Positions 21,157 to 41,403 of a stretch of DNA of 64,000 nucleotides are shown here, piece by piece. The translations under genes and the position numbers were made by a program. The first letter of the stretch is position 1. Every line of letters begins with the position of its first letter. The stretch is from Armatimonadota bacterium (GTDB lineage Bacteria > Armatimonadota > HRBIN16), in assembly GCA_963677485.1 (NCBI GenBank), contig OY781964.1, positions 3,456,001 through 3,520,000 of the forward strand, in the 5' to 3' direction. Under the pieces are notes generated by a model. The model was not told the DNA's origin. It saw only the letters and a list, made by a program, of their open reading frames with translations, and did not search any database.

Positions 21157-21402
21157 TTGTGCTTCATGACCCCGTTTTGCGAAATGAACTCATTCTGGCC
21201 GATTTCTCAGCTTGTTTAGTTGAGTATACTAGAGGAACTCGTGAGTGTCCATCGGACGAAAGTGGCCTAATCATTGAGCGACAGCCATATATAGAGTGTG
21301 GCAGGATCATCATTTGCAGACTACAATATCACTACCATCACACGAAAGCTGTGACTCAAACTACGTGTCGCTGAAGCGGAGACGGCCGAAAGGAATTGCA
21401 TA

Positions 21403-24237: not shown

Positions 24238-24353
24238 CGAGGAGATGGGTGTTTTTTCCTGCAGCATGTAAGAGTGGAGGCACAACCTAAACTTCCGTCG
24301 CCTTCTGGTACAATGCGATAAGTGAGCATATACGACCGATTGGAGAAATTGCC

Positions 24354-24686: not shown

Positions 24687-24698
24687 AGTGATCATGTG

Positions 24699-24740
24699 AA
24701 ACCTGTCATCACTATGGTAGTGATTAAGGTTTATTTTCTT
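24699..24740 (+). terminator. probable intrinsic terminator
   Basis: AAACCT..ATCACTA-TGG-TAGTGAT..AGGTTT imperfect stem followed by ATTTTCTT. Confidence 0.5.
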
Positions 24741-24989
24741 CAGGCACGCAACGGTATATCTGAGCATCAAACAGCACCCTTTACTTCATACCGCATTTTC
24801 GCACTCAAAACCGCCTCTGTATATCCGCCAGTTTGAATCTCAATGATCTTCATAGTAGTAATCAACCAGTTTCCCTTGGTTAAAGTCTGCTGTCATGGCG
24901 GCAGGATGCTGCGCGGGCGTGATCTTGCTGGATGACGCGAATATGAGGCAATGAGCGAAGGGCGGCCGGATGGCCGCCCTGAATGGTGG

Positions 24990-26417
24990 CTACTTTGAGT
25001 TCGCGGCGGTGACGAGGGTCCAGTCGTCGGTACGGAACGGGGAGGCTGGAAGGCCATCAGCATTCCACAGGTTGACAATTGGGCAGTAGGCCCAGCCGTA
25101 GCGCACCGCTACGGGAGCGGGTACATCAGCACTGCTGACCTTTACCGACTTACCCACGATGACGGCTTCTGCGTTGTGCCACTTCTTGTCAGCACCGGCG
25201 ATGGTCCAGCCCGTGAGCGGACCGCCCTTGGCGACCAGCCCCTTGCCTGCGAAGTTGAAGCTGACGATCGCCGCTCCGTCTTTGATCTTGATCTCCTTAT
25301 ATTCAGGACCGCGATAAGCCACCTTGCGCTTGTAGGCGATGGCTCGGGCGGCCAATGCCAGGCGTTCACCTACGGGTTGTTTCCATACAGGGTGGATGTT
25401 ATCGGGATCACCGATGTCGGTGATGACCGCCATGGCCGTTTTGGGGCAGTGGAGAGCGGTGAGACGCTGAGCTTCGCGGAGCTCCGCCCATTCGCTTTCC
25501 TGAGGCTGCTTCACAATGGTGCTGAACGGCGCGATCTGAACGAACAGGAAGGGGAAGTCGCCTTGAGCCCAGTCTTTACGCCAGTTATTGATCATTGTGA
25601 TGAAGCGCTGCTCGTAGATGGCTGCGTATCCGGCGTTGGATTCCCCTTGATACCAGATGGCGCCCTTGATGCCGTAGGGGATAAGCGGGGTTATCATGCC
25701 GTTGTAGAGAACAGAAGGGTCATTGGGCTTTTGCGCCCACTCAGGCCAGATCGGTCGATCCTTGGTCCACTGTGCTTTATCTTTAGGATCAAGCACCAAG
25801 GGGCTGGTCCAGGCCTCCACACGGGTACCGCCCAAGCTTGAGTGAATCAGGCCAATAGGCACCTTCTCGTCCCGCTGCATGGCTCGACCAAAGAAATAGC
25901 CTACTCCAGTGAAGTATTGCACTGTATCCGGGTTGCACAGCTGCCAGCTCTGTTTGACGTCGTCTATTGGGGTAGCTGAGATGGTGGATGGCACCGTATA
26001 CAGCCGGATCATGGGGTTCGTGGAAGTCGCGATGGCCTCTTTACCACCATCTGACTGTGATAGCCATAACTGCATGTTGCTTTGGCCGCTGCAGACCCAC
26101 ACATCACCCACCAGAAGGTTCTTGATGGTGATCTTGTTGTTACCTGTGACCACCATGTCGAAAGGTCCGCCCGCTTTCACGGATTTCAGACGCACCATCC
26201 ACTTGCCCTGAGCGGCCACGGTGCTGGCGGTTTGCCCACAGAACTGCACGGTGACCTTCTCACCCTCAGCGGCGGTGCCATACACGGGCAGGCTGATGCC
26301 GCGCTGCAGCACCGCGTTCTCAGTGAAGAGGGAGTGCATGGCTACATCGGCCCAGAGGGGCGTGGAGGCCACACAGACGGCTGCCGCCAGAGCGACGGCG
26401 AAACCAGATGACTTCAT
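24990..26417 (-). CDS. secreted sialate O-acetylesterase (SASA/DUF303) family
   Basis: Signal peptide; GDVWVCSGQSNM, WYQGESN, NIHP, PVAVRYGW, LPASPFRTD. Confidence 0.92.
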   Translation of the reverse strand: MKSSGFAVALAAAVCVASTPLWADVAMHSLFTENAVLQRGISLPVYGTAAEGEKVTVQFCGQTASTVAAQGKWMVRLKSVKAGGPFDMVVTGNNKITIKNLLVGDVWVCSGQSNMQLWLSQSDGGKEAIATSTNPMIRLYTVPSTISATPIDDVKQSWQLCNPDTVQYFTGVGYFFGRAMQRDEKVPIGLIHSSLGGTRVEAWTSPLVLDPKDKAQWTKDRPIWPEWAQKPNDPSVLYNGMITPLIPYGIKGAIWYQGESNAGYAAIYEQRFITMINNWRKDWAQGDFPFLFVQIAPFSTIVKQPQESEWAELREAQRLTALHCPKTAMAVITDIGDPDNIHPVWKQPVGERLALAARAIAYKRKVAYRGPEYKEIKIKDGAAIVSFNFAGKGLVAKGGPLTGWTIAGADKKWHNAEAVIVGKSVKVSSADVPAPVAVRYGWAYCPIVNLWNADGLPASPFRTDDWTLVTAANSK

Positions 26418-26453
26418 GTTATTTGATACCTCAATGAATTTGATGAGTGATGC

Positions 26454-27083
26454 TTAAGCTAAGCCAGTGGCCTTGAGCCATGACTGTGCGATCAAACTGT
26501 GGCCTGCACTGGTGGGGTGTACCCCGTCGGATGCCCAGTAGGACAAACCGGTGTGGCAGGCTGCCGCTGCGAAAATGCCATCCATGGGGATGTAGATGGC
26601 GTCATACTTCTGTGCCAGGGCCCGCGCGACGTGGATTTTGGGGTCGAGGTCTTCACGCCAGTCATTTTGAGCAGGGGACACCGGCATTAGAAATGGCTCG
26701 ATGATGACTATCTTGGCGTCAAGCTCTGTTTTGACACGCTCCAGGATGGTGCCGAAGTTCTGGGCATACTCTTCGGTGGATGTGGGGACGTTGCTGTCAT
26801 ACCGACGCCAGGTGTCGTTGACGCCGATGAGGATGGAGACGACATCGGGTTTTAGGTCGATGCAGTCCTCCGTCCACCTGTTGACCAGGTCGATGCTCCT
26901 GTCACCGCTGATACCACGGTTCAGGATGGTGATGTTGTGGGCAGGGTGTGCGGCGGAGAGCTGGCCCTGGATAAACATCGGGTATCCGCCGCCCAGCTCC
27001 GCATCGTTGGTGCGGCTGCGACCGGCGTCGGTGACGCTGTCACCCTGGAACAGTATGGTTAGGTTGGTATATGGATCTATCAT
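26454..27083 (-). CDS. SGNH/GDSL hydrolase family esterase
   Basis: FQGDSVTD, NRGISG, LIGVND, DGVHP. Start moved to MIDP (27083), which has a GGAGG RBS; the longer ORF runs through the tRNA. Confidence 0.92.
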   Translation of the reverse strand: MIDPYTNLTILFQGDSVTDAGRSRTNDAELGGGYPMFIQGQLSAAHPAHNITILNRGISGDRSIDLVNRWTEDCIDLKPDVVSILIGVNDTWRRYDSNVPTSTEEYAQNFGTILERVKTELDAKIVIIEPFLMPVSPAQNDWREDLDPKIHVARALAQKYDAIYIPMDGIFAAAACHTGLSYWASDGVHPTSAGHSLIAQSWLKATGLA

Positions 27084-27219
27084 GTGTGGATGAACCTCCG
27101 TAAAGTTGGCAATCGAGGATATTATAACGCTAATGGGAGGCAGGAGACAGGAGAAGAGGAGGGGAATTGGTTCACGCGAAGGCGCGAAGACGCGAAACGA
27201 AGGGGGAGAAAACGAAAAA

Positions 27220-27296
27220 TGGTCGGGGTGGCGGGACTTGAACCCACGACCTCTTGACCCCCAGTCAAGCGCGCTACCAAACTGCGCCACACCCCG
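27220..27296 (-). tRNA. tRNA-Pro(GGG)
   Basis: Minus strand reads CGGGGTGTGGCGCAGTTTGGTAGCGCG-CTTGA CT GGG GG TCAAG-..GGTTCAAGTCC..CACCCCGACCA. Confidence 0.97.
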
Positions 27297-27374: not shown

Positions 27375-28616
27375 CTACGGGCCCGGCAGCGGCAGGATGC
27401 GGCGCTTGCCCGCGGCGTCGATGGTGCCCACGCTCGTCTCTGTCTGCCACCAGCAGTTGCGCACCTTGATCGGCTCCGTCAGCCATTTCGCGTGGCGGAC
27501 GTCCAGGATGCGGATGGGGTGGACATCCCTGTAAAGACCTGAGCTATATATGGCATAGTCTTTCGACCTTGAAATCATATAGATATCTTTGATTTTGCTA
27601 TCGGGAACAAGCTGAGACACAGGTTGGTGCTTTTCCGAGAGTGTGATGATTTCGATCACATCCTTGCCGTTTATCTTCTTGTCGCCGATCAAGGTGTTTT
27701 CATCAAACCACGACACTGGGTATTGAAACCCATGTTTCGCATGGATCTCTTGATCTAGCGAAGGGTGCCTGTTAGGGTTGGATCTCACCAGATGCCAACT
27801 GTATTCCGGAGCTGTTTGTCCCGGACGGCAATTATTTACCATGTAGATAACCTTTGCGCCATCAGGGCTAATGTCCGCTATCTCTGCACGGTCAAGCATG
27901 TCATCACGCCTGAAGTTTGGTAAATGACCTATTGAAAAAATGAAAACTACCCAGATTACGGATATTAGGGCAAAACCTGTTATCAACAGCCTGCTTCTGG
28001 AGTCCCACCGGCAGTACCTATGTAACAACAGCATCAGTATGGGTGTTGCCAACAAGGCTCCCCATATTGGATAGAAAGTTATTGGAGTTTTGCCAGCCGA
28101 GTTTGGTAATAGCACAACCAGCAAGGCGGTAGGAAAGGCCCAGAGCAGCATGTGAAGATTCGTCTCGAAACGGCCAAACACAGAAAGCCCAAACCCAAAA
28201 CACCATGCAAGAAATGTGAGCCCCACCGCTTTGATCAACCCATATTCCATTCCGTGAAGACTGAGGAACGGCCGGTATTCCGGCTGACATGCGATTAGGA
28301 ACACGACCAGGCCTAACAGTGCGGCCGCTATACTATAGACCAGTGCAAGCAATGCCTTTACATACATTAGCTTATCCAGGTTGACAGCCATCGACGCTCC
28401 ATATTCAAACGCCCTGGTCTCTTTTTCTCGGGAGATGGAATAGGCTCCAAACACCATGGAGATTATCGCTGGCAGAAATGCCCAACCTGTCGTACAGTCT
28501 ATGCTTCCTTGAAATGTGTAGGAAGTGCCGATTGCGACAATCAACATGGAGCTTAAACATAATACGAGCCCGTATATCCAGCATTCGCGGTGCTCTTTCC
28601 ACAGCAACCGTTTCAT
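27375..28616 (-). CDS. ABC-2-like permease type A, cassette 4 (A4), with variable C-terminal soluble domain
   Basis: MKRLLWKE start, ISREKE loop, about 7 hydrophobic segments, ISPDG, conserved tail LDVRHAKW..VRNCWWQ..GKRRILPL. Confidence 0.75.
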   Translation of the reverse strand: MKRLLWKEHRECWIYGLVLCLSSMLIVAIGTSYTFQGSIDCTTGWAFLPAIISMVFGAYSISREKETRAFEYGASMAVNLDKLMYVKALLALVYSIAAALLGLVVFLIACQPEYRPFLSLHGMEYGLIKAVGLTFLAWCFGFGLSVFGRFETNLHMLLWAFPTALLVVLLPNSAGKTPITFYPIWGALLATPILMLLLHRYCRWDSRSRLLITGFALISVIWVVFIFSIGHLPNFRRDDMLDRAEIADISPDGAKVIYMVNNCRPGQTAPEYSWHLVRSNPNRHPSLDQEIHAKHGFQYPVSWFDENTLIGDKKINGKDVIEIITLSEKHQPVSQLVPDSKIKDIYMISRSKDYAIYSSGLYRDVHPIRILDVRHAKWLTEPIKVRNCWWQTETSVGTIDAAGKRRILPLPGP

Positions 28617-29869
28617 CTCTTTTCATCTCCTGTCCACTTTATGACTGGTCCCAGCGTCATGGTGTCTAGCTTTAGAATACGGGCTTCACCAGGTAGGTCA
28701 TCAACAAATGTCGCGATTTTTGGGCTACGGAACATCATTTCGTATATGTTACTGTCGTTGGCCATGATCAACTTCGTGGTGCGAGTAGGTATATCGATAA
28801 CCATGTAGTCATAACCTCGACCGAGTTTTGATTGGAGCCTGAGAAGAAGGTATCTGTTATCATCACTTGATATACTCAACACGTATGCGGAAGATTCTGG
28901 TTCATAGGTATATCGGTCGCGATTGATGGTGGTGATGATCGATATTTCGTTTGATTCATAGTTCCAGCGGATGATACTCGTGGCATCTTTCTTGCTATTT
29001 AATGCGATCGCTGATACAAACTGCCTGCCGTGAATACCTAACGGGACCACACGGTCCCAGTCTCCCCACCGTTTGATCTTTAACTGATAGGAACGCCCTG
29101 TCCTGTAGTCACTGAGTGTGGCGACCCCCTCAGGTTTCCGCGTCACTTCCAGCGATCGATCCGCCGTAATATGGTACCCATACTGACCCAAACGTTCACG
29201 GTCGTCACTGAGCATCTGCCGGATGCCAGCTATAAATACCCATACCAGGCAGATGGTCAGCACGAGTTGTAGAATGGTCGGTATGCGTTTGTGCAGGCGT
29301 GTCGAGAACACTAGAGATAAGGTTGCGATGATCACGCTCACGACTATGATGTTGGTAATCCCCAGCCCTAGGTTTGTCGGTTGATAGTGGAGACTGTTTC
29401 TATTGCCGGCATAATCAAGGAAGGCCGCTATGAATGGTATTGTCGTGAACATGGCTGGAAACCACGGATGCGACCATATACCCAAAGAGTAACCCAACAT
29501 ACCAGCACACACGAACCACGCCAACATGAAAGCTGTAGTGTATGAAAGAGAGCCTTTATGCAGCTCGGACACACAAGCGGTAAAGATAAGAGCACAACAA
29601 CATGCCCATATGGTGATGAGAATAATTGATGGGAGCTTGCTGTGTATCGTTGTGGTGTCGCCACTGGAATGATCTTTTTTACCTCGTGCGGCGGCTAAGG
29701 CCGTGATAATGTACACGATGGGTATGAGAATTAAAACGACAGCAGTATTTTTGTCTCTCCATTGAGCGATGCAAATCACCGCCACCCCCACCGCCAGCAC
29801 CGACGCCCAGCGCTTCCAGTCCTCGCGCCAGACCTTCCAAAACAGCCGCCCGAAAATACTCCAGCTCAT
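28613..29869 (-). CDS. ABC permease-like membrane protein type B, cassette 4 (B4)
   Basis: Invariant N-terminus MSWSIFGRLFWKVWREDWKRWASVLAVGV; about 7 TM plus a soluble C-terminal domain; ATGA overlaps on both sides. Confidence 0.72.
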   Translation of the reverse strand: MSWSIFGRLFWKVWREDWKRWASVLAVGVAVICIAQWRDKNTAVVLILIPIVYIITALAAARGKKDHSSGDTTTIHSKLPSIILITIWACCCALIFTACVSELHKGSLSYTTAFMLAWFVCAGMLGYSLGIWSHPWFPAMFTTIPFIAAFLDYAGNRNSLHYQPTNLGLGITNIIVVSVIIATLSLVFSTRLHKRIPTILQLVLTICLVWVFIAGIRQMLSDDRERLGQYGYHITADRSLEVTRKPEGVATLSDYRTGRSYQLKIKRWGDWDRVVPLGIHGRQFVSAIALNSKKDATSIIRWNYESNEISIITTINRDRYTYEPESSAYVLSISSDDNRYLLLRLQSKLGRGYDYMVIDIPTRTTKLIMANDSNIYEMMFRSPKIATFVDDLPGEARILKLDTMTLGPVIKWTGDEKR

Positions 29870-30009
29870 TGCCCGTTACCTCCCGGCAGCGGCAGGATGC
29901 GACGCTTGCCCGCGGCGTCGATGTAGCCCACGGAGCGGTCGCTCTGCCACCAGCAGTTGCGCACCTTGGTCGGCTCCGTCATCCACTTGGCGTGGCGGAC
30001 ATCGAGGAT
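29778..30009. repeat. ~230-bp GC-rich cassette anchor repeat (A3 tail plus B4 head)
   Basis: Near-identical to 32278-32516 and 34769-35006. Half copies lie at ~27383-27515 (A tail only) and 37311-37408 (B head only). Confidence 0.92.
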
Positions 30010-31119
30010 AAGCATATTGGCAGGACGGCTGTATTCAAAATCCGCATACATGACATAATCGCCGTTTGCCGATGGAGTAAACGCAAGTTGTTCACCGGAC
30101 TCCAGGGTGGGTACCTGAGGTATCGAATGTTGGTTATCTGCCAGGTTGACGACATTAGCATAGGGTTTGGAGTTCTTCTCTGAATAGACTATGGCGGTTT
30201 TGCTGTCTACCCACGCCTGTATACGCTTATAATAGGCTGCTCCCTTATAAACATCATCAATGCGATGAAGCAGTTTACCGTCACGGAGGTCGACGAACTG
30301 CCAGTGGTGTTTAATTTCTCGGCCGGGCTGTTCTGTCGACACGATGTACAGTGCTGTTGCGCCGTCTGGGCTGACTGTACGTAGCTGTCTGCTCATAGCC
30401 GGATATCGATAGGTGAAGGACTGATATTTACCGGCATACAGGGTGATGATTGCTGACAACACCATAATCGTGATGAATCCCGATTGCAATGGTGTCTTGT
30501 CCGAGTGCCAGCCACAGTGTCTATGCATAACTATCACAAGCAGCGGCGTGACCATCAACACCCAAGTTGACCATGATTCCCAGCGTGTGATTGGAGTGTT
30601 GTGGCTAGCGAATAGAGGAATCATCCAGGCCACCAATGATACCCACAATAGTATGTGCAGGTTGGTTTCAACGCGGGGATAGATGGACAAGCCGAAACCA
30701 TAGTACCAGCCCAGTGATGTCAACCCAACAGCAACTGCAACGCCACATCCCAGATCATGAAGGTTGATCAATTGCCTGTATTCTGGTCGGCACGCGAGGA
30801 GAAACACCACCATGCTGGCAATCGCTGCCACGATACTGTAGCTCAAAGCCATTAGCGCCTTAGCCAACACGAGTTTATCCAGGCTGATAGATCGTGAAAC
30901 CAAGCCTTCAAGACTGTGGTTCTCTTTTTCACGTGAGAGCGTTGATGCTCCCATGACCGCCGATATGATGACCGGTAGAACAGACCAGCCGGTGACCTCG
31001 TTGAGACGACCTTGAAATGTATACGAGGTTCCGATCGCTACAATCAGCATGGAGCTAATGACCAATGCGAGACCGTACAGCCAACACTCACGGTGCTCTT
31101 TCCAAAGTAGACGTCTCAT
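29866..31119 (-). CDS. ABC-2-like permease type A, cassette 3 (A3)
   Basis: MRRLLWKE, LSREKE, VSPDG, same conserved tail. Confidence 0.75.
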   Translation of the reverse strand: MRRLLWKEHRECWLYGLALVISSMLIVAIGTSYTFQGRLNEVTGWSVLPVIISAVMGASTLSREKENHSLEGLVSRSISLDKLVLAKALMALSYSIVAAIASMVVFLLACRPEYRQLINLHDLGCGVAVAVGLTSLGWYYGFGLSIYPRVETNLHILLWVSLVAWMIPLFASHNTPITRWESWSTWVLMVTPLLVIVMHRHCGWHSDKTPLQSGFITIMVLSAIITLYAGKYQSFTYRYPAMSRQLRTVSPDGATALYIVSTEQPGREIKHHWQFVDLRDGKLLHRIDDVYKGAAYYKRIQAWVDSKTAIVYSEKNSKPYANVVNLADNQHSIPQVPTLESGEQLAFTPSANGDYVMYADFEYSRPANMLILDVRHAKWMTEPTKVRNCWWQSDRSVGYIDAAGKRRILPLPGGNGQ

Positions 31120-32369
31120 CGTGTGCTATCCTTCTTCCATCCAAGAATGGGTCCAAGGACCAGTGTGCTAGTATTGAGTAACCGGGCCCTGTTGTGCTCA
31201 CGATCGGTGAATATCGCGGTAGTGGGTGTTGGTATCTCCATGTCGTACTTCGGGTATGCGTTTGACATAATGATCTTCATTTCGTGAGTCCGGATGTCCA
31301 ATAACCAGTAGTCACATCCTTGCCCAAGTTTCGAGCGTAGTTTCAACAGCATCAGGCGTCCATCTTCGCTGACTGTGCCGATATGTACACCTTCTGATCC
31401 CTCGTAATACTGACTGTTATCGATATTTAAGATGGTCTTGACTTGATTTGATCTGTAGTTCCACTGAATGATTTGGCTGACTTGCTTCTGGCGATCAAAT
31501 GCTGTGGCCAACAGTGATTTGTTTGAACATACAGCCAAAGGCACTAAGGTATCCCATGATCCATGCTTCTTGATATCGAGAGTGTAGCTGTGTTTTGTTT
31601 TCAAGTCGTTCAGCACCAAATATCCATTTTCTGCACATGATGCTTGGAGGGAGCGATCCGATGATGTGATACTTTTGGGCATGTCCTGCGTTCTAATCCC
31701 ATCGTTGGACAAGTGTGCAACAACAGTCGTAAATGCCCAGATTATGCAAGCTGCTGTGGCGAACTGGAAGATTACAGGCCATCGAGTCTTGCGTTTTACT
31801 GCTTGTGTTAACGAGATATATAGTATTACACTGCTGGTAATGGCTATGTTTAATGACGATAATGCGGGAAATGCCACCGTATGTGATGCATCTCCATAGT
31901 AGTAAATATTGTCAGTTCCTAACATTATTACCAGCGTCGTTATTATGGCAGGCAACCAGGGATGCGCCCATATGCCAAGTGCGTACCCTGTTACCCCGGC
32001 CGAGATGATCCATACGAGCAGGAAACTCACTAATACGCTGATTGGACATTCGAAGGGGATGTATAAACACCGCGATAATGCCAGGGCAGAGATGGCCGTC
32101 CAGATGATCACGAATACGATAGATGGGATTTTGTATGATATGGTGGAATCTCCAACGATGAAGCTATCTCGTTTCCCTCGTCCGGCCGCCATGGTGGTGA
32201 ACACATAGACGAGTATCCATAATATCACCATGTTTATCCAGCTTACCATGGCTTCCGTAGACTGAAAGAGTAGTAGTGCCGCCACCCCAACCGCCAGCAC
32301 CGAGGCCCAGCGCTTCCAGTCCTCGCGCCAGACCTTCCAAAACAGCCGTCCGAAAATGCTCCAGCTCAT
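31116..32369 (-). CDS. ABC permease-like membrane protein type B, cassette 3 (B3)
   Basis: Invariant 29-aa N-terminus; HPW, SKLG.G.DY and LGP..W motifs shared with the other B genes. Confidence 0.72.
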   Translation of the reverse strand: MSWSIFGRLFWKVWREDWKRWASVLAVGVAALLLFQSTEAMVSWINMVILWILVYVFTTMAAGRGKRDSFIVGDSTISYKIPSIVFVIIWTAISALALSRCLYIPFECPISVLVSFLLVWIISAGVTGYALGIWAHPWLPAIITTLVIMLGTDNIYYYGDASHTVAFPALSSLNIAITSSVILYISLTQAVKRKTRWPVIFQFATAACIIWAFTTVVAHLSNDGIRTQDMPKSITSSDRSLQASCAENGYLVLNDLKTKHSYTLDIKKHGSWDTLVPLAVCSNKSLLATAFDRQKQVSQIIQWNYRSNQVKTILNIDNSQYYEGSEGVHIGTVSEDGRLMLLKLRSKLGQGCDYWLLDIRTHEMKIIMSNAYPKYDMEIPTPTTAIFTDREHNRARLLNTSTLVLGPILGWKKDSTR

Positions 32370-32516
32370 TGCCCCTTACCTCCCGCCAGCGGTAGGATGC
32401 GGCGCTTGCCCGCGGGGTCGATGTAACCCACGCTCGTCTCTGACTGCCACCAGCAGTTGCGCACCCTGATCGGCTCCGTCAGCCACTTGGCGTGGCGGAC
32501 ATCGAGGACGCGGATA
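32278..32516. repeat. ~230-bp GC-rich cassette anchor repeat (A2 tail plus B3 head)
   Basis: Direct repeat spaced about 2.5 kb from its neighbours. Confidence 0.92.
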
Positions 32517-33616
32517 GGGTCGATATCACTGTATACACCTGAGCTGTATATGGCGTATTCTTTCGACTTTGAATGCATATAGCTCTCTTTGATTTTGCTA
32601 TCGGGAACAAGCTGAGACACAGGTTGGTGCTTTTCCGAGAGTGTGATGATTTCGATCACATCCTTGCCGTTTTGAGTCCTGTCGCAGATCAAGGTGTTTT
32701 CATCAAACCACGACACTGGGTATTGAAACACATGTTTCGCATGGATCTCTTGATCTGGCGAAGGGTGCCTGTTAGGGTTGGAGCTCACCAGATGCCAATT
32801 GTATTCCGGAGCTGTTTGTCCAGGTCGACTAATGGGTACCATGTAGACAACCTTTGCGCCGTCAGGGCTAATGTCCGCTATCTCTGCACGGTCAAGCATG
32901 TCATCACGCCTGAAGTTTGGTAAATGACCTATTGAAAAAATGAAAACTACCCAGATTACGGATATTAGGGCAAAACCTGTTCTCAACAGCCTGCTTCTGG
33001 AGTCCCACCGGCAGTACCTGTGTAACAACAGCATCAGTATGGGTGTTGCCAACAAGGCTCCCCATATTGGATAGAAAGTTATTGGAGTTTTGCCAGCCGA
33101 GTTTGGTAATAGCACAACCAGCAAGGCGGTAGGAAAGGCCCAGAGCAGCATGTGAAGATTCGTCTCGAAACGGCCAAACACAGAAAGCCCAAACCCAAAA
33201 CACCATGCAAGAAATGTGAGCCCCACCGCTTTGATCAGCCCATATTCCATACCATGAAGGCTGAGAAACGGCCGATATTCCGGCTGACATGCGATTAAGA
33301 ACACGACCAAGCTTAACAGTGCGGCCGCTATACTATAGACCAGTGCAAGCAATGCCTTTACATACATTAGCTTATCCAGATTGACAGCCATCGACGCTCC
33401 ATAATCAAACGCCCTGGTCTCTTTTTCTCGGGAGATGGAATAGGCTCCAAACACCATAGAGACGATCGCCGGCAGCAATGCCCAACCTGTCGTGCAGTCT
33501 ATGCTTCCAAGAAATGTGTAGGATGTGCCTATTGCGACAATCAACATGGAGCTCAAACATAATACGAGCCCGTATATCCAGCTCTCGTGGTGCTCTTTCC
33601 ACAGCAGACGTTTCAT
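32366..33616 (-). CDS. ABC-2-like permease type A, cassette 2 (A2), close paralog of A4
   Basis: Colinear with A4 at an offset of exactly 5000 nt, with long identical nucleotide stretches. Confidence 0.75.
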   Translation of the reverse strand: MKRLLWKEHHESWIYGLVLCLSSMLIVAIGTSYTFLGSIDCTTGWALLPAIVSMVFGAYSISREKETRAFDYGASMAVNLDKLMYVKALLALVYSIAAALLSLVVFLIACQPEYRPFLSLHGMEYGLIKAVGLTFLAWCFGFGLSVFGRFETNLHMLLWAFPTALLVVLLPNSAGKTPITFYPIWGALLATPILMLLLHRYCRWDSRSRLLRTGFALISVIWVVFIFSIGHLPNFRRDDMLDRAEIADISPDGAKVVYMVPISRPGQTAPEYNWHLVSSNPNRHPSPDQEIHAKHVFQYPVSWFDENTLICDRTQNGKDVIEIITLSEKHQPVSQLVPDSKIKESYMHSKSKEYAIYSSGVYSDIDPIRVLDVRHAKWLTEPIRVRNCWWQSETSVGYIDPAGKRRILPLAGGKGQ

Positions 33617-34860
33617 CTCTTGTCATCTCCTGTCCACTTTATAACAGGTCCTAGACTCATGGCATCTAGTCGAAGAATTCTGGTTGTTTTACGATGGTCA
33701 TCCAAAAACGTGGCGATCTTCGGGCTGCGGAACCCCATTTCGTAAATGTTGCTGTCATTAGCCATGATCATCTTCGTGGTGCGTGTTGGTATATCGATAA
33801 CCATGTAGTCAAAACCATTACCGAGTTTTGATTTGAGCCTGAGTAGAAGATATCTTCCATCATCACTTGAAGTGTGGAATATGGCACGGCCAGACTCCAT
33901 GGAATAGTCGTACCGATGACTATTGATAGCGATGATGATAGATACATCGTTCTTGATGTAGTTCCAACGGACTATACTCGACTCGGCCTTCTTGCTGTTC
34001 AATGCGATCGCCGAAACAAACTGATCGCGTTGAATGCCTACAGGAATCACTCGGTCCCAACCACCCCACTTTTTGATGTTTAATTTGTAGGAACGCCCTG
34101 TCCGGTAGTCACTGAGTGTGGCGACCCCCTCTGGTTCCTGCGTCACTTCTAACGTTTGATCCGCCGTGATTTGATGCCCATACTGCCCCAAATGCTCACG
34201 GTCGTCATCAATCACATAAGCCATCCCTGCCACAAATCCCCAGACCAGGCAAATAGTAAGTATGAGCTGAAGTATGGTCGGCATGCGCTTGTGCAGGCGT
34301 GTTGATAAAACAAGAGATAAGGTGGCGATTACCACGCTCACAGCTGCGATGTTGGCTATTCCTAGCTCTGGGAGTGAGGGTTCATAAGGCAGACTGTTGT
34401 GATAACTTATATAGTCAATGAATGCCGCGATGAATGGCAGTGTTGTGATCATGGCTGGAAACCACGGATGTGACCATATACCCAAAGAGTAACCCAACAT
34501 ACCAGCAGATACGAACCAAGTCACCATGAATGCTGTGGTATATGCAAGAGAGCCTGTATGCAACTCGGGGAGACAAGCGAAAAAGACAAGAGCATATACA
34601 CTTGCCCATATGGTGATGAGAACAATGGACGGCAGTTTTTCATATATCGTTGTGGTCTCGATATTATTACAATCTCGTTTCCCCCGTATGGCGGCCATGA
34701 AACTAGACATGTATATAAACAGAATTGGTATCCCTGACACATTGATGTATCTCCGAGCGATGCATATAACCGCCACTCCCACCGCTAGCACCGACGCCCA
34801 GCGCTTCCAGTCCTCGCGCCAGACCTTCCAAAACAGCCGCCCGAAAATGCTCCAGCTCAT
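33613..34860 (-). CDS. ABC permease-like membrane protein type B, cassette 2 (B2), closest to B4
   Basis: Invariant N-terminus; shares PEGVATLSDYRTGRSY and IMANDSNIYEM with B4. Confidence 0.72.
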   Translation of the reverse strand: MSWSIFGRLFWKVWREDWKRWASVLAVGVAVICIARRYINVSGIPILFIYMSSFMAAIRGKRDCNNIETTTIYEKLPSIVLITIWASVYALVFFACLPELHTGSLAYTTAFMVTWFVSAGMLGYSLGIWSHPWFPAMITTLPFIAAFIDYISYHNSLPYEPSLPELGIANIAAVSVVIATLSLVLSTRLHKRMPTILQLILTICLVWGFVAGMAYVIDDDREHLGQYGHQITADQTLEVTQEPEGVATLSDYRTGRSYKLNIKKWGGWDRVIPVGIQRDQFVSAIALNSKKAESSIVRWNYIKNDVSIIIAINSHRYDYSMESGRAIFHTSSDDGRYLLLRLKSKLGNGFDYMVIDIPTRTTKMIMANDSNIYEMGFRSPKIATFLDDHRKTTRILRLDAMSLGPVIKWTGDDKR

Positions 34861-35006
34861 TGCCCCTTACCTCCCGCCAGCGGCAGGATGCGGCGCTTGC
34901 CCGCGGCGTCGATGTAGCCCACGGAGCGGTCGCTCTGCCACCAGCAGTTACGCACCTTGATCGGCTCCGTCAGCCACTTGGCGTGGCGGACATCGAGGAC
35001 GCGGAT
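34769..35006. repeat. ~230-bp GC-rich cassette anchor repeat (A1 tail plus B2 head)
   Basis: Direct repeat; a hand count gives 118/180 G+C over 34801-34980. Confidence 0.92.
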
Positions 35007-36122
35007 GAAGGGAGAACTATCCCATCCAATCGATTTCATTATGATGTAGTCACCTTTGACCGATGGTCGGATATCGCTGCTTCCTGAACCAAGGATTATA
35101 CTTGGAAGAGTATGCGCTATCGGATGGTATCTGTCTTGGAAAGTGATGACTCTCACGCACGGTTTGTATGCTGTCTCGAAATACTCAATAACCGCAGTGT
35201 TTGCCCCAATCCATGTTTTGCTATTATAACTACCATTTATGATGTTGGCGTTGTCGCATCGATATAACTTGTTGCCGTTGCTCGCGTCAGTAAATTGCCA
35301 GTAAGTGTTGGATGCTGAACGTTTGGACTGCTTCACGGTCACCAAAAAGAGGGCGACATGGCCGTCTGGGCTGACACATATGAGCTTAGGTTTACTGGAT
35401 GGATGGTTGATCATATAAGCCTGATGTCTTCCGAACAACATCGCTATGACAACTGACGCGATGACTATCAATACAAATCCCGGTTTGAGCAGTTTATGGT
35501 CTGAACGCCATCTGCACTGCCTGTGCAACAGGATGACAGCTGCAGGTGTGATCATTAAAATCCATGTTGGCCACAATATCCACCATGATCGAACAACTTC
35601 ATATGTGGCTATCGTTGGTACCAAGAATGCGACTAACATACCCCACATGAGCGTGTGTAGATTTGTTTCGAAGCGTGCAAAGATAGATAATCCGAAGCCG
35701 AAATACCAAGCCATCGAGTTGATTGCTATGGCCTGAAACAATCTAGTAACGAGCTCATGGGGATTGAGCAAATCTCTGTATTCAGGACGACATACAATTA
35801 GGAACACTATCAGGCTGGAAATAGCGGCTAATGCGTTATAGATAAGGGCAAGCACCGCTTTTGCCAGAACAAGGGTGTCTGGGTTAACCGTGTTGTATGC
35901 TGCAAAATCATGGGTTCTGCCTTCTTTTTCGTGTGAGATTGAGAATGCCCCAAACATCATGGATATGATGACGGGTAGCATGAACCAGCCAGTGATGAAA
36001 TCTATATGCCTTATGTATGTATATGCTGTCCCTATTACTACGATCAGCACGGAACTCGCACTTAAAGCAAGACCATATGGCCAGCTCATACGGTTCTCTT
36101 TCCACAATATGCGCTTCATCAT
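34857..36122 (-). CDS. ABC-2-like permease type A, cassette 1 (A1)
   Basis: MKRILWKE, ISHEKE, VSPDG, same conserved tail. Confidence 0.75.
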   Translation of the reverse strand: MMKRILWKENRMSWPYGLALSASSVLIVVIGTAYTYIRHIDFITGWFMLPVIISMMFGAFSISHEKEGRTHDFAAYNTVNPDTLVLAKAVLALIYNALAAISSLIVFLIVCRPEYRDLLNPHELVTRLFQAIAINSMAWYFGFGLSIFARFETNLHTLMWGMLVAFLVPTIATYEVVRSWWILWPTWILMITPAAVILLHRQCRWRSDHKLLKPGFVLIVIASVVIAMLFGRHQAYMINHPSSKPKLICVSPDGHVALFLVTVKQSKRSASNTYWQFTDASNGNKLYRCDNANIINGSYNSKTWIGANTAVIEYFETAYKPCVRVITFQDRYHPIAHTLPSIILGSGSSDIRPSVKGDYIIMKSIGWDSSPFIRVLDVRHAKWLTEPIKVRNCWWQSDRSVGYIDAAGKRRILPLAGGKGQ

Positions 36123-37402
36123 TTATGATCTCCTGTCCACTCAACAACGGGACCCAAGTTTGCGGTCTTTAGCTCTAGAATTCGAGTGGAATTCCGCTCT
36201 CGGTCGGTGAGTGTGGCGATTCCATGGTTGTTTACTTCAATATCGTATTTGGGACTGACATTAGCCAGGATAACCTTCAATATATTGGCTCGTATGTCAA
36301 TCAAGCAATAGTCACATCCTCTGCCCAGTTTTGTTTTCAACCTCATGACCACGTATCTGCCGTCATCGCTGGTGGTTCGAGGAGATTCTAGACCGTCGAA
36401 GTTGGACCGATACTCGTTCCCGTTGATAAAATACTGTCTATTGCCCAGGTCCATTAGTGTTGTTACTCGATTAGCCAGATAATCCCAGCGTATGAGGCTG
36501 TTCGTGTGAAGCTGCTTGTTGAATGCAATGGCCAGAACATACCGGTTACGACATATCCCTACAGGTATCGCCGCGCTCCAATCACCAAATCTCCTGGTAT
36601 TTATAGTGAAGGAACGTCCAGTCTTGCGGTCTTGAAGATATAGTAAACCTGCTGTTTTTTGGCGTGCTTCGAGTGTGTTATCATCTGAGGTAATGCGGCT
36701 CTTCGTGATATCCTGTGCACGATTCTCGCTGACTAGGCCGTATGCCGCAATAGCCCACAATATGCATAGGGCACCGATGAACTGGTAGCTGATCGGTATG
36801 CGCTTATTACATCTTGATGATAATGCAGATGCCGCGGCAACAATGATCACTGTGGCTACCGCCAAATTGAGTGCCGTAAATGCTGGGTATGGGATGTGGG
36901 TATGAAGTGTCAAGCTGCGTGCATAGTAGTTCTCGATTTCACATCCTACTACAGGTATTAACAAAATGGCTGAGAACCACGGATGTACCCATTGTCCGAG
37001 GACATACCCAATCAGTCCGGTTGAGACCATCAACAACATGATGAATGGGAACAATCCGCCATATGAACTCTTGGTCTCTAGATACAAGCTTAAAGATGGT
37101 AATATCGCGGATATGCTTGACCATATTACTATTAGCACCATAGACGGTGTTCTGTAGAAGGTCGCTATTGTATTCGCATCAAGACGATCTTTGTTACCTC
37201 GTACGGACGCAACAGCTATGCCGACAACCATGAAGATAAAAGCCGACATTACCACATAGGTATTTCGATCGCTATCGTCCAGAAGTGGGGTACTACTAAA
37301 AAATAGGTATGCCACCACCCCAACCGCCAGTACCGAGGCCCAGCGCTTCCAGTCCTCGCGCCAGACCTTCCAAAACAACCGCCCAAAGATGCTCCAGCTC
37401 AT
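36119..37402 (-). CDS. ABC permease-like membrane protein type B, cassette 1 (B1)
   Basis: Invariant N-terminus; ATGA overlap with the ATPase stop codon. Confidence 0.72.
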   Translation of the reverse strand: MSWSIFGRLFWKVWREDWKRWASVLAVGVVAYLFFSSTPLLDDSDRNTYVVMSAFIFMVVGIAVASVRGNKDRLDANTIATFYRTPSMVLIVIWSSISAILPSLSLYLETKSSYGGLFPFIMLLMVSTGLIGYVLGQWVHPWFSAILLIPVVGCEIENYYARSLTLHTHIPYPAFTALNLAVATVIIVAAASALSSRCNKRIPISYQFIGALCILWAIAAYGLVSENRAQDITKSRITSDDNTLEARQKTAGLLYLQDRKTGRSFTINTRRFGDWSAAIPVGICRNRYVLAIAFNKQLHTNSLIRWDYLANRVTTLMDLGNRQYFINGNEYRSNFDGLESPRTTSDDGRYVVMRLKTKLGRGCDYCLIDIRANILKVILANVSPKYDIEVNNHGIATLTDRERNSTRILELKTANLGPVVEWTGDHK

Positions 37403-38298
37403 TGCCCCTCCTCCGGTCCGCCGACCAGTGCCACAAAGATATCTTCCAGACTCATCTGTTGCACATCCATCTCCATCGGTTGGAGCGCACGCAGACGCTC
37501 CAGCAGCTCGGGGGAGCTCTTGACGGTCAGCACCGCCTGCCGACCGGTCTGATCACACTCCAGCACACCGGGCAGGGAGGCCAGATCTGCGGGCTGCTCG
37601 GAAAAGCTCAGCACCACCCGCTGCACGCCGTTCTTCAGCTCCTCAAGAGGGGAGCACCACACCATATGGCCGTGGTCGAGTATCCCCACCCAGTCGGCCA
37701 CGCGCTCCACCTCATGCACAATGTGCGTGCTGAAGAACACGGTGCGGCCCTGCTGCTGGATCATCTCAATCACTTCGCCCAGGAAGTCGCGCCGCACCAC
37801 AACGTCCAGACCGGCGGTGGGTTCGTCCAGTATCAGCAGCTCGGGGTGATGCGCCAGCGCCAGCAGCAGACCCAGCTTCGCCTTCATGCCGCGGCTCAGC
37901 TCGCGCACCTTCTTCTTGCCATCTAACCCAAGGCGCGTTTTGTGCTCCTCGGCCAGCGCGTCGTCCCAGTCGGGGTAAAATCCCTTGCAGAACCAGATGA
38001 TCTCATCCACCTTCATCCAGTCATACATCTGCTGGCCGTCGGCCACATACCCGATGCGGCTCTTGATCTGCCTGGATTTCTTCACGCTGTCCAGTCCCAG
38101 CAGCTTCGCGGAGCCGGATGTGCGGGGCAGCAGGTCCATCAGCATCTGAATGGTGGTGGTCTTACCCGCTCCGTTGCGGCCCAGGAAGGCAAACACGCTG
38201 CCCGCCGGCACCTTCAGGTTCAGGTGGTCCACAGCGGTCTGGTGGCCGTAACGCTTGGTTAAATCGCACGTCTCAATGGCGTAGCTCAATTCGCTCAT
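37399..38298 (-). CDS. ABC transporter ATP-binding protein (YtrB-like)
   Basis: Walker A GRNGAGKTT, signature LSRGM, Walker B LILDEPT, H-loop STH. Confidence 0.95.
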   Translation of the reverse strand: MSELSYAIETCDLTKRYGHQTAVDHLNLKVPAGSVFAFLGRNGAGKTTTIQMLMDLLPRTSGSAKLLGLDSVKKSRQIKSRIGYVADGQQMYDWMKVDEIIWFCKGFYPDWDDALAEEHKTRLGLDGKKKVRELSRGMKAKLGLLLALAHHPELLILDEPTAGLDVVVRRDFLGEVIEMIQQQGRTVFFSTHIVHEVERVADWVGILDHGHMVWCSPLEELKNGVQRVVLSFSEQPADLASLPGVLECDQTGRQAVLTVKSSPELLERLRALQPMEMDVQQMSLEDIFVALVGGPEEGQ

Positions 38299-38315
38299 GG
38301 TTCACTCCCTCTAAT

Positions 38316-38720
38316 CTACTTCGGCTCATCATGGCCGGATGATGTGTTGGTTGAAGATAGTCGCTGTTGGATGAGATCGATGAGTTCCTCACCGCTGACG
38401 TCCAGTTGGCTGGCATCACGCAGCAGGCGGTCGATGGCCTGGCTGAGGGTTTGGCGCGCGTAATCCGCGGCGACTCCCTTCACGCTTTCGGCGATGAAGC
38501 TTCCGGTGCCGTGGAGAGTGACCAGGATTCCCTCACCCTCCAACTGCTTGTAGGCCTTGCTGACGGTCAACGGGTTGATTTTCAACTTCAGCGAGGTCTC
38601 GCGCAGCGAAGGCAGACTGTCGCCAGGCTGCAGCACGCCGGTGGCGATGGCGTGCTTCACCTGCTCGACGATCTGCGCATAGACCGGTATAGAACTGCTG
38701 GTATCAACTACGAAAATCAT
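38316..38720 (-). CDS. GntR family transcriptional regulator, YtrA subfamily
   Basis: 134 aa; IPVYAQIVEQ, LPSLRE, INPLTVSKAY..LE.EG, GTGSF; short C-terminal domain; lies directly upstream of an ABC ATPase. Confidence 0.93.
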   Translation of the reverse strand: MIFVVDTSSSIPVYAQIVEQVKHAIATGVLQPGDSLPSLRETSLKLKINPLTVSKAYKQLEGEGILVTLHGTGSFIAESVKGVAADYARQTLSQAIDRLLRDASQLDVSGEELIDLIQQRLSSTNTSSGHDEPK

Positions 38721-38730
38721 GGCCCGCCAA

Positions 38731-38780
38731 CTGTGTTAGTGATGTATAACAGTATATATGGTGTTTTACCTCAATGTCAA
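38731..38780 (-). promoter_or_regulatory. sigma70-type promoter with an overlapping putative YtrA-type operator
   Basis: Minus strand TTGACA (38775-38780), N18, TATACT (38751-38756), then the imperfect IR CTGTTATA-CATCAC-TAACACAG (38731-38752). Confidence 0.7.
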
Positions 38781-38886: not shown

Positions 38887-39630
38887 AACCGCGGATGGAC
38901 GCAGATGGACGCGGATGGGACGGTGGACTGTCACGCGAAGACGCGAAGACGCGAAGGCGCGGAGGGATAGGGTGGTAGCTGCCTGGGAACGCCAATCTCC
39001 CGATTGGCCTCCGGTGAAGTGACGGGGTCACGCGGGGTATTTGTTTGAACCGCGGATGGACGCGGATGGGGATGGTGTACTGTCACGCGAAGACGCGAAG
39101 GCGCGAAGGGGATAGGGTGGTGGCTGCCTGGGAACGCCAATCTCCCGATTGGCCTCCGGTGTAGTTACGGGGTCATGCGGGGTATTTGTCTGAACCGCAG
39201 ATGGACGCGGATGGGACGGTGGACTGTCACGCGAAGACGCGAAGGCGCGAAGGGGATAGGGTGGTTGCTGCCTGGGAACGCCAACCGACCGATTGGCCTC
39301 CGGTGTAGTCACGCTGTCACGAGGGTATGTGTCCGAACCGCGCATCGACGCAGATGGACGCGGATGCGACGGTGGACTGTCACGCGAAGACGCGAAGACG
39401 CGAAGGGGATAGGATGGTGGCTGCCTGGGAACGCCAATCTCCCGATTGGCCTCCGGTGAAGTCACGCTGTCATGCGGGGTATTTGTCTAAACCGCAGATG
39501 GACGCGAATGGACGCAGATGGGGACGGTGGACTGTCACGCGAAGGCGCGAAGGCGCGAAGGAGATAGGGTGGTAGCTGCCTGGGAACGCCAATCTCCCGA
39601 TTGGCCTCCGGTGAAGTTACGCTGTCACGC
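38887..39630. repeat. five tandem copies of a ~145-155-bp composite REP-like unit
   Basis: GCCTGGGAACGCCAA..CCGATTGGCCTCCGGTG starts at 38981, 39126, 39270, 39423 and 39578; each unit also carries (ACGCGAAG)n and (GGACGCRGAT)n submotifs. Confidence 0.92.
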
Positions 39631-41403
39631 GGGGGTGCCCAAGGGCGCGGGAACCGCGCCCCTTGTATGCTGCTGGTAGATATACCGCGCGCGGCCGCTG
39701 GGGGCGGTGTCGCCGTGTGTCCAGGCGGTCAGGATATCGCCGTCCTTCAGGCAGTTATCCGCCCACTTGAACTGCAGACTCACTAACTTACCAGCCAATC
39801 CCAGAAGCTTGCGCGGGATGGTGATCATCGACTGGTTTCCCTCCAGCCTGTAGTCCACATCGGCCAGTTTCTTCCACTTCCAGCCACCCTGACAGACCTC
39901 CAGAACCGCCTTGCTGCCTGGTGACACGCGGTTTACGGCATACTGGAACCCCTCCCAGGCCGGACCTTTACCGGTGCTGATGAAGAGCTGCATCCACTGC
40001 GGACCCGTGCGTGGTGTGATATCTTTGGTGGTCAGCACGTAGAAAACCAGGTTCTTGGCGTCACGGGCCACTTTGGCCACACGCAGGTCGTTGCGACCGC
40101 TGTTGTCTGTGTAGTGCAGTTCCTTGCCGATGCCATCATGGTCACGGGGCAGTGTCTCGTTGATGGTGTCCAGATAGCTGGGCTGCACCTTCTGCCATGC
40201 CGACCAGGGCGTGTTCTTGCCGATACTCACTTCGCGGCCTGCTTTTGGCACCGCACGGGCGCCTTTGAACTGGCGGATGTAGTTCACCATCTGGTAGTAG
40301 TAGTTGTCAGAATGTCCGCCCACCATCGGCTCGATATCGCGTGAATACTCCTGGTTGAATGTATCCACAAAGATCACTGGCTTCTTCACGCCTAGGAACT
40401 CCGGTAATCGCAACGCCATCCACTCATTCCATCCCGTGACGAAGATGAAGTCGGGGTCTTCTTTAATGGCGTGCTCGAACTGCTCAGCAAGATTGAACCC
40501 CATATTCACCGCTCCGGGCCGGGTGTCGCGTGCGCCGTTGTGCCATGTGCGTCCATATACGCGGTCGCCATCGCTCATAGAGCCCACTTTCCCATCGACT
40601 CCATTCTGCGAGGCCCCCACTGACATCATCTCTCGTTCGCCCTGGCTGTTTTTGAACATGTGCTGGGGGTATATCTCCAGCCAGCTCCACTGGTCTGGGC
40701 CGGAGGGGCCATCGAAATACGATGGCATCGGCTTGCGGAAGGTGAAGAACTCCTTCTGACTGCCAGTGGCAAACGCGGGGTCTGCCATGACCAACGGCTT
40801 CCCTTTCCATAGATACCATAACTCCTTGTAAAGGCCGGGCCGATACAACTGATCCCATAGCTGGTTCAACGAGGGGGTAGGGTCGCCGAAGGGGCACAGG
40901 AAGGCGATTTGCGGGGTCTCGAGCCCTTCGCGGCGCATCTGAGTCCATGTCTCCGCAAGGGCTTTCCAACTCTCAGGGTAGGTCACATTGTTGGTGACAT
41001 CAAAGATGACCACATCCACACCTGCATCGCTGAGCATCGTCGCGTGACGGCGTAACACCCATGTGTCGGTGTTCAGATAATAGCCATATATCGACTCCCC
41101 CCACTGATGGAAGCTGTACTGCGGGCCCCAGACCGGACTGTCGGCGTTCCTCACCGCGCTGGGATCTTTCGCCAGCGCCTTGGGAATATCGTATGGGCCA
41201 TACTTCAGGTCCAACCACAAAAAGTAGAATATACCCACCGCTTTACCTGGGCGTGGCGCCGGCACCTTCGGGGCAATGAGCAGGGGACGTCCCAGTGCAT
41301 CGGTGGCAGCCCAGGTATCGGGCATCGTGTCGATAGGTTTTGCCATCAGCGATCCTCCGATCAGTGCAAGAGCGATCAGCGGAATCACGGAAACGGGTGT
41401 CAT
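39625..41403 (-). CDS. secreted putative glycoside hydrolase (GH71/99-like), paralog 1
   Basis: Signal peptide; TWAATDALGR, VGIFYFLW, WGE..YGYY, FDVTN, TGWNEW, EYSRDIEP. Confidence 0.65.
   Translation of the reverse strand: MTPVSVIPLIALALIGGSLMAKPIDTMPDTWAATDALGRPLLIAPKVPAPRPGKAVGIFYFLWLDLKYGPYDIPKALAKDPSAVRNADSPVWGPQYSFHQWGESIYGYYLNTDTWVLRRHATMLSDAGVDVVIFDVTNNVTYPESWKALAETWTQMRREGLETPQIAFLCPFGDPTPSLNQLWDQLYRPGLYKELWYLWKGKPLVMADPAFATGSQKEFFTFRKPMPSYFDGPSGPDQWSWLEIYPQHMFKNSQGEREMMSVGASQNGVDGKVGSMSDGDRVYGRTWHNGARDTRPGAVNMGFNLAEQFEHAIKEDPDFIFVTGWNEWMALRLPEFLGVKKPVIFVDTFNQEYSRDIEPMVGGHSDNYYYQMVNYIRQFKGARAVPKAGREVSIGKNTPWSAWQKVQPSYLDTINETLPRDHDGIGKELHYTDNSGRNDLRVAKVARDAKNLVFYVLTTKDITPRTGPQWMQLFISTGKGPAWEGFQYAVNRVSPGSKAVLEVCQGGWKWKKLADVDYRLEGNQSMITIPRKLLGLAGKLVSLQFKWADNCLKDGDILTAWTHGDTAPSGRARYIYQQHTRGAVPAPLGTPA

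Follow-up and report, generated by a model that had tools for sequence, protein, structure and literature searches.

A GntR-controlled ABC operon with one ATPase and four tandem permease pairs in an Armatimonadota bacterium

Introduction

In Staphylococcus aureus, the pmtR-pmtABCD operon places a short GntR regulator gene directly before ATP-binding cassette (ABC) ATPase and permease genes of the ABC-2 type, with two ATPases and two plain permeases. Pmt is described as an ABC exporter of phenol-soluble modulins with a GntR-type repressor (PMC5080381, PMC5354552), and the former source reports that the PmtR-type operon responds to membrane- or envelope-active agents, a response reported likewise for the clnRAB operon (bioRxiv 10.1101/347286). 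Another operon of this kind, ytrGABCDEF of Bacillus subtilis, has a GntR-family repressor over ABC genes with two transmembrane (TM) proteins; the ytr operon is reported to be induced by ramoplanin, bacitracin and vancomycin and to encode two ATPases, one TM protein pair and YtrF (PMC7828314). In this study, we explore a related locus in an Armatimonadota bacterium (GTDB lineage HRBIN16; assembly GCA_963677485.1), located in a stretch of 64,000 nucleotides (nt) of contig OY781964.1 (positions 3,456,001 to 3,520,000 of the forward strand), hereafter the window. On the minus strand of the window, gntR and one ABC ATPase gene are followed by four pairs of permease genes, B1 A1 B2 A2 B3 A3 B4 A4, with a tRNA-Pro gene at the end.

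The operon type, a GntR-controlled ABC-2-like exporter, is already known. As far as our searches reach, the permease family, the division of a propeller over two permeases and the joint-bounded polymorphic array are undescribed in the literature searched, in which no publication on a natural propeller split across two ABC permeases was found. Pmt lacks the extra TM7, the propeller, the repeated pairs and the conserved joints, and Ytr has neither a cassette array nor a split propeller; of the likeness to ytrABCDEF drawn in the original prediction for this DNA, the operon type stood and nothing beyond it. The mycobacterial Rv1217c-Rv1218c pump, a solved ABC-2 (type V) exporter, resembles the present system in its ATPase, Rv1218c, and the TM part of the A3 model can be aligned with its permease chain 8k1m_B; at the level of sequence, however, no permease match was found, and the part of Rv1217c that aligns is devoid of a C-terminal propeller. 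The sharing of a single ATPase by several membrane modules is described for the importer ATPases MsmK, MsiK and MsmX and for shared energy-coupling factor (ECF) modules (PMC7658222, PMC4519317), but those are type I importers with scattered permease genes, whereas the modules here are exporter-like, tandem, coupled and joint-bounded. Finally, each C-terminal domain resembles TolB and propellers assembled from fragments (the designed Ika4; 6r5z, 6r60) in having ~3-4 blades of the TolB/WD40 type, although those are soluble or designed proteins.

The explanation that we favour, and consider rather probable as a whole, is a single operon under GntR control in which one ABC-2-type (type V-like) ATPase would serve four alternative, exchangeable heterodimeric membrane modules. 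Each module would be a B/A pair of distantly related seven-TM permeases, whose extracytoplasmic partial propellers are modelled to close into one ring, probably of seven blades. The modules would be bounded by a direct repeat of ~235 nt, comprising the constant 3' end of A (its last blade) and the constant 5' end of B (its N-terminal helix), and recombination or gene conversion would keep this repeat alike. In-frame recombination between repeats, or with the DNA of relatives, would add, delete or replace whole modules, as the pattern of cassettes suggests, so that strains would differ in the number and combination of deeply diverged module types. By analogy with Pmt, Ytr, Cln and LanFEG-type systems, the machine would most likely protect the cell by expelling, or shielding against, membrane- or envelope-active molecules, with specificity set by the variable TM and propeller parts; this is the weakest step of the explanation.

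Organization of the locus

Three genomes of one genus are compared below, namely that of the window (G000) and two others (G001 and G002). G000 is a single 5.22-Mb contig, and all of its A genes (n=4) and B genes (n=4) lie in the array. The features of the locus, all on the minus strand, are as follows.

38751-38780, minus strand: promoter-like TTGACA-18-TATACT upstream of gntR, 11/12 consensus positions
38316-38720, minus strand: gntR, GntR-family regulator of the short YtrA/PmtR-like form, 134 amino acids (aa), PF00392 match
37399-38298, minus strand: ABC ATPase, the sole one of the operon, 299 aa, PF00005 and PF13732, the latter a DrrA-type C-terminal domain
37309-37414, minus strand: left half-joint, ATPase gene end plus the initial ~90 nt of B1 (constant B 5' segment)
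34857-37402, minus strand: cassette 1, B1 36119-37402 (427 aa) and A1 34857-36122 (421 aa)
34770-35007, minus strand: joint repeat R1 (A1/B2), with ~145 nt from the 3' end of A1 and ~90 nt from the 5' end of B2
32366-34860, minus strand: cassette 2, B2 33613-34860 (415 aa) and A2 32366-33616 (416 aa), related to cassette 4
32277-32518, minus strand: joint repeat R2 (A2/B3)
29866-32369, minus strand: cassette 3, B3 31116-32369 (417 aa) and A3 29866-31119 (417 aa), the proteins modelled
29779-30015, minus strand: joint repeat R3 (A3/B4)
27375-29869, minus strand: cassette 4, B4 28613-29869 (418 aa) and A4 27375-28616 (413 aa)
27382-27518, minus strand: right half-joint, constant 3' stretch of A4 as the last A gene, ending the same in G000 and G001
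27336-27308, minus strand: promoter-like site of tRNA-Pro(ggg) itself
27220-27296, minus strand: tRNA-Pro(ggg), which ends the locus in G000, G001 and G002 alike

The eight permease genes encode proteins of 413-427 aa, and cassettes 1 to 4 measure 2546, 2495, 2504 and 2495 nt. As read from the coordinates, a 4-nt overlap joins the genes at each junction from the ATPase onward (8/8). These coordinates reproduce the layout originally predicted, with gntR, the ATPase and four B/A pairs, nine genes coupled by 4 nt and a period of ~2.5 kb; layout and overlaps together agree with the claim of a single, translationally coupled operon that contains four A/B pairs besides one regulator gene and one ATPase gene.

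Cassette diversity among relatives

The locus running from gntR and the ATPase to tRNA-Pro is present in both same-genus genomes, with different contents. G001 has only two cassettes; identity between their A proteins and those of the window is 37-43%, and no cassette is orthologous between G000 and G001. Over a stretch made up of gntR, the ATPase gene and the opening 90 nt of B, these two genomes are nevertheless 94.7% identical at the nucleotide level, against 84-86% for flanking genes elsewhere. G002 has three pairs, the middle one without propellers. Genome comparison therefore shows strains to carry different cassette numbers and combinations. The original prediction had proposed an expandable array, and the orthologous loci do hold other cassettes in other counts (two and three) rather than the same four.

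The short pair of G002 (L015 10152-11659), situated between two full cassettes, consists of proteins of 216 aa and 290 aa, neither with a Pfam match. The pair retains the constant B N-terminus and TM segments without a propeller, and its A-like protein ends in a proline-rich stretch.

Phylogenetic analysis of the G000/G001 group divides the A proteins into six or more deeply diverged types, with close members within a type. In other assemblies, protein P0006 is 91-94% identical to A2/A4 (94% to A2), P0002 is 80% identical to A3, and P0008 is 78% identical to the A2 of G001. P0002 and P0008 share one 6847-bp contig, a combination found in neither G000 nor G001.

Beyond the genus, an A-type gene occurs in 18/301 genomes sampled across the phylum, and the order gntR-ATPase-B-A holds in all five extra-genus loci examined. 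Four of these (G085, G141, G197 and G024) have a single pair, whereas the fifth, in G245 of another family, holds three pairs whose B start is conserved (79-96% nucleotide identity). The A proteins of G245 form a weakly supported cluster (80/72) separate from the clade of the genus (100/100), so the array expansions in G245 and in the genus are probably independent. Judged from the sequences of these loci, the single B-A pair is the ancestral state and the usual form across the phylum. About 2 kb past the three-pair array of G245 lies a classical half-transporter gene (L048 4318-6144) with ABC_membrane and ABC_tran domains.

At E <= 0.001, a search of 1.84 billion proteins assigns 178 cluster representatives to the family as a whole, 108 of them also at <= 1e-10, and none of the ten representatives scanned reaches a Pfam threshold. 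A scan of GTDB genome contigs returned only the two same-genus loci already known, and scans of JGI metagenome contigs with the A and B alignments gave 83 and 200 pattern stretches without a relative by tblastn. No fused or longer form was found at E <= 0.001 among proteins of 785-2240 aa, which is weak evidence. Look-alikes of B3 in the ESM Atlas are proteins of 554-706 aa from other phyla, a minority of whose members bear ABC2_membrane, PD40 or LVIVD labels; they serve as leads only, and no protein of 554-706 aa appears among the best 150 of the 178 profile matches.

The tRNA-Pro gene adjoins the array in all three genomes of the genus and is absent from that position at the five loci outside it. 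An integrated island at the tRNA was rejected on this ground and on the absence of an integrase among the neighbours scanned.

Joint repeats and cassette divergence

The joint between cassettes spans ~235 nt, of which ~145 nt close the A gene and ~90 nt open the B gene after it, and is 93-98% identical at the nucleotide level between cassettes (flanking 60-nt windows). Cassette interiors are ~50% identical for most of their length, with most interior windows at roughly 25-65%. The joint encodes 29 N-terminal residues that are identical in 4/4 B proteins and form the N-terminal helix, as well as the last blade of A, including an NCWWQ stretch located in the predicted seam. Synonymous sites were compared at degenerate codons with an invariant amino acid in cassettes 1-3, cassette 4 being excluded as a recent copy. 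Codons are identical in the joints at 51/69 such positions in B (74%) and 93/105 in A (89%), and in the interiors at 82/210 (39%) and 96/258 (37%), respectively. Synonymous sites of the joints are thus far more alike than those of other conserved codons, which argues that joint identity exceeds what protein constraint would impose.

At the protein level, A pairs are 43-46% and B pairs 36-40% identical between cassettes, with cassettes 2 and 4, which are recent relatives, as the exception (A2/A4 91%, B2/B4 71%). Neither this relationship nor the near-identical joint of ~235 nt had been remarked in the original prediction. Divergence is strong both in the C-terminal domains and in most of the TM region; for the C-terminal domains, the original prediction had anticipated this, and the values agree with it outside cassettes 2 and 4. 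Between the latter, the synonymous distance (dS) is 0.15 for A2/A4, with near-zero stretches, and 0.68 for B2/B4, an unevenness that marks a recombinant mosaic. Their ratio of non-synonymous to synonymous distance (dN/dS), 0.29-0.30, reflects purifying selection, so the genes are being maintained in working order.

Third-position GC reaches 0.83-0.95 in joint bins and 0.81 in the ATPase gene and 0.50-0.59 in the cassettes, against a genome median of 0.66 (5-95% range 0.51-0.77; 1539 long open reading frames (ORFs)). The drop in the cassettes may stem from foreign origin, from relaxed codon use or from GC-biased conversion of the constant parts. Among the long ORFs, gntR and the ATPase gene (0.74-0.81) rank in the top 0.4% and the cassettes among the lowest 3-22%; the single-pair operons of G085 and G141 have no such drop.

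Permease fold and the split propeller

The A proteins are sub-threshold ABC-2 matches, the two strongest Pfam scores both belonging to A3 (PF12730, 24.2 bits versus 27; PF13346, 23.1 versus 25), and precomputed labels of PF12679, PF12730 and PF13346 are attached to 4/8 A-type relatives. The LanFEG immunity model (MutE/EpiE, TIGR03732) scores highest on A3, with 24.3 bits against a threshold of 145.2. A PDB profile search with the A alignment gave 6 weak matches (best E 0.069) with no transporter among them. Profiles of A and B are related at the N-terminus only (hhalign probability 83% over 93 columns).

In the AlphaFold models of A3 and B3, a beta-rich C-terminal domain (~170-190 aa) comes after seven TM helices. 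A hydropathy scan of all eight permeases found 6-7 hydrophobic segments in each, and the alignments contain SPDG motifs in A and SDDG/SEDG motifs in B. The initial description of about seven hydrophobic segments and a soluble C-terminal domain with SPDG/SDDG turns is thereby upheld by models, hydropathy and alignments alike. Moreover, the distribution of lysine and arginine over the loops fits an N-terminus inside and a C-terminus outside in 8/8 permeases, and the C-terminal domains are accordingly predicted to be extracytoplasmic. Residues 1-209 of the A3 model align with the Rv1217c permease chain 8k1m_B (Z 9.4, root-mean-square deviation 4.9, 193 residues aligned), which is suggestive, not decisive, of a kinship between the modelled TM part and that fold.

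The C-terminal domain of B3 matches TolB in Foldseek (E 4.5e-6), and that of A3 scored VIA Z 10-12, including the designed half-propeller Ika4 (Z 10.4). In the A3 and B3 models each chain has ~3-4 blades, which falls short of a complete, closed TolB/PD40-type propeller in one chain; by sequence, PD40 is detected below threshold in one relative (P0020, 16.7 bits versus 20.9). Of the propeller-like extracytoplasmic domain first proposed, the fold match and the predicted location outside the cell stood, while each domain turned out to be partial rather than a whole propeller.

The two partial propellers may complete each other. Residues 236-417 of A3 and 226-417 of B3 were modelled as a complex, the cognate pair alone with 3 controls, and gave a median ipSAE of 0.74 against 0.38 for the top control; in calibration, the corresponding pass mark was reached by 58/80 solved complexes and 2/110 mismatched pairs. 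At least 61% of contacts were shared between runs, and partner pLDDT was at least 78. The modelled interface has two seams, one between the last blade of A and the first of B and the other between the first blade of A and the last of B, and a ring closed at both is thereby implied. DSSP assigns 13 strands to A3 and 15 to B3, and this sum of 28 would make seven four-stranded blades. In A, conservation is higher at predicted interface residues than elsewhere in the domain (0.51 versus 0.35, permutation p 0.003), also when the constant end is left out (0.40 versus 0.23). The model supports, and does not show, binding of the A and B halves through a shared ring, and lends the same support to the heterodimeric A/B pairing that had been proposed. 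Mixing of pairs, which according to the original prediction would raise the repertoire to as many as 16 combinations, is at this stage conjecture.

Regulator and ATPase

Residues 14-76 of the gntR product match PF00392 with 54.2 bits (gathering score 27). Regulators of the YtrA subfamily of GntR have a short C-terminal effector or dimerisation part of ~50-60 aa after the helix-turn-helix (HTH), and the length of the product, 134 aa with the HTH at 14-76, would be consistent with this subfamily as generally defined, a comparison of length and HTH position. The ATPase exceeds the gathering scores of both PF00005 (88.4 bits versus 25) and PF13732 (35.0 versus 27.4). The likeness to Pmt extends to the top NCBIfam models, which are PmtR for the regulator (NF047563, 68.8 bits, 4.3e-19) and PmtA for the ATPase (NF047565, 184.1 bits, 3.2e-54), both far under their equivalog cut-offs of 200 and 350; DrrA (TIGR01188, 179 against 312) is not reached either. 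Among solved structures, the ATPase matches ABCA1 (4.6e-51) and, over its entire length, Rv1218c (4.9e-35).

The promoter-like site of gntR is conserved in G000, G001 and G002, and the 34 nt after it (~38725-38758) are invariant across them; a short inverted repeat within these 34 nt, ACTGT...ACAGT, may be a GntR operator. Inside the array, the highest promoter-like score on the coding strand is 9/12, against 11/12 upstream of gntR. The number of promoter-like sites in the region (15) is not above that of shuffled sequences (mean 15.4), and the same holds for terminators; the tRNA was the sole match of an Rfam scan.

Occurrence in metagenomes

Five sequencing runs from two studies contain 92-95% of the sampled words of the array, and four runs (X1, X4, X6 and X7) were compared with it as Logan contigs. 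Pieces from X1 and X4 lie on all four cassettes with 0 differing letters. X6 differs at 106/1573 letters on cassette 3 and 34/586 on cassette 1, and X7 at 51/~1190 on cassette 3 and 59/523 on cassette 4, so that contigs of these two runs match cassette 3 and, in part, cassette 1 or 4, at about 4-11% difference. X6 has no cover on cassettes 2 and 4 and X7 little on 1 and 2, and neither run is informative on absence. Contig depths differ between cassettes, and such depths are unfit for ranking the parts.

Alternative explanations

No Logan contig spans the whole array, contigs end at every joint, and joints of this length could mislead short-read assemblers, all of which would be expected if cassettes of co-occurring strains had been stitched together at shared joints. 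We nevertheless regard an assembly artefact of this kind as highly improbable, given a genome assembled as one contig, the recovery of the array's words in five runs of two studies with letter-perfect pieces in X1 and X4, and in-frame multi-pair layouts in two other genomes of the genus and in one genome of a distant family. A real array might still be an ordinary multi-substrate exporter, in which tandem-duplicated, subfunctionalised pairs work together, species differences arise from lineage gain and loss, the joints are functionally constrained and the pairs have no role as a library. All eight permease genes are intact with dN/dS ~0.3, translational coupling suggests co-expression, the constant parts map to the predicted subunit seam and the N-terminal helix, and the same strain sequence recurs unchanged in runs of two studies. 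We consider this reading unlikely, as synonymous sites agree at 74-89% in the joints against 37-39% at other conserved codons, cassettes of G000 and G001 are not orthologous in spite of the similarity of their gntR-ATPase segments (94.7%) and flanks (84-86%), and the same cassette types occur in other combinations on other contigs. Quite unlikely, in our view, is a variable surface receptor or sensor, whose split propeller would bind a ligand, or be a target of phages or bacteriocins and diversify to escape them, or take part in ATP-driven mechanotransmission of the MacB/Bce type. In favour of this reading, the most variable soluble part is the propeller, a domain predicted to face the cell exterior and closest in fold to TolB, which is targeted by colicins; furthermore, within a single 50-codon stretch of the A propeller, A2 and A4 differ by 10.5 non-synonymous and 0.5 synonymous changes, albeit in small numbers. 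The TM regions, however, are as variable as the propellers, which fits substrate paths equally well, the operon contains no kinase or other signalling partner, and escape from a predator would favour loss or change over the keeping of four copies.

Several observations also weigh against the explanation that we favour, joint-mediated turnover of exchangeable export modules. Joint identity at the nucleotide level could partly reflect selection on the mRNA, for example for translational coupling, rather than recombination, and no recombinant or variant-number array appeared in the contigs of X1, X4, X6 and X7, which break at repeats. None of the eight permeases (0/8) reaches a curated Pfam or NCBIfam family threshold, and the B proteins are without a relevant Pfam match, even a sub-threshold ABC-2 one. 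Confidence of the A3 and B3 models is middling (mean pLDDT 67 and 74; pTM 0.50), and a Z of 9.4 for a helical bundle lies in the common range, since helical Z values under ~13 may reflect a common arrangement. The complex score may mirror a general tendency of propeller fragments to assemble, and predicted interface residues of B are no more conserved than the rest of its domain (0.32 versus 0.34, p 0.58). As for function, the neighbourhood (glycosidases, esterases, an ammonium transporter) holds no pointer to a substrate, no RNA run is among the listed runs containing the array, and PADLOC matched defence models to none of five non-ATPase proteins and only generic ABC/AAA-type models to the ATPase.

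Genomic neighbourhood

A 153-nt unit, present in 4.9 successive copies, lies immediately upstream of the gntR promoter (window 38900-39634). Parts of this unit occur at 82 genomic places, including 27163-27200 just past tRNA-Pro, and it looks like a dispersed intergenic repeat. The repeat creates a spurious ORF of 145 aa (39028-39465) and very high contig depth in read tables. Among the contig joints listed for the four runs, none falls inside the permease array. A joint of positions 27163 and 39083 in X1 and X4 was considered as an excision of the array and rejected; its shorter side measures 26 letters and falls within this dispersed repeat, and the joint is therefore not read as excision. 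Adjoining the repeat array is an ORF of 592 aa (window 39625-41403, minus strand) without a Pfam match, of which two copies exist in G001 (86% and 81% nucleotide identity) and one in G002 (73%).

Downstream of the tRNA (window 18693-27290) lies a carbohydrate-active run with a GDSL lipase/esterase, a SASA-type acetylesterase, an NPCBM-domain protein and a melibiase-like protein. The run is partly syntenic with G001, where it is ~78 kb from the array, and with G002, where it is ~7.7 kb away.

Implications

The constant parts of the system (regulator, ATPase, B N-terminal helix and last A blade) could be seen as an engine, around which modules would circulate as discrete allelic types. A recombination-driven, strain-specific repertoire of exchangeable transporter 'heads' might then provide polymorphic immunity to, or recognition of, antagonists such as peptides, bacteriocins or phages, a suggestion that we offer tentatively and regard as doubtful at present. 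If true, the locus would parallel, among exporters, polymorphic toxin-immunity or capsule-switch loci, would exemplify for exporters the use of one ATPase by several membrane modules, and would encode the first beta-propeller in nature that two ABC permeases build together. It would also represent a transporter with modular in-frame cassette exchange, in which constant 'handles' undergo concerted evolution and interiors are deeply diverged, so that population-level diversification of transporter specificity would become testable. Since the family is small and unannotated (178 representatives; 18/301 genomes), a functional result for one member would name the whole family.

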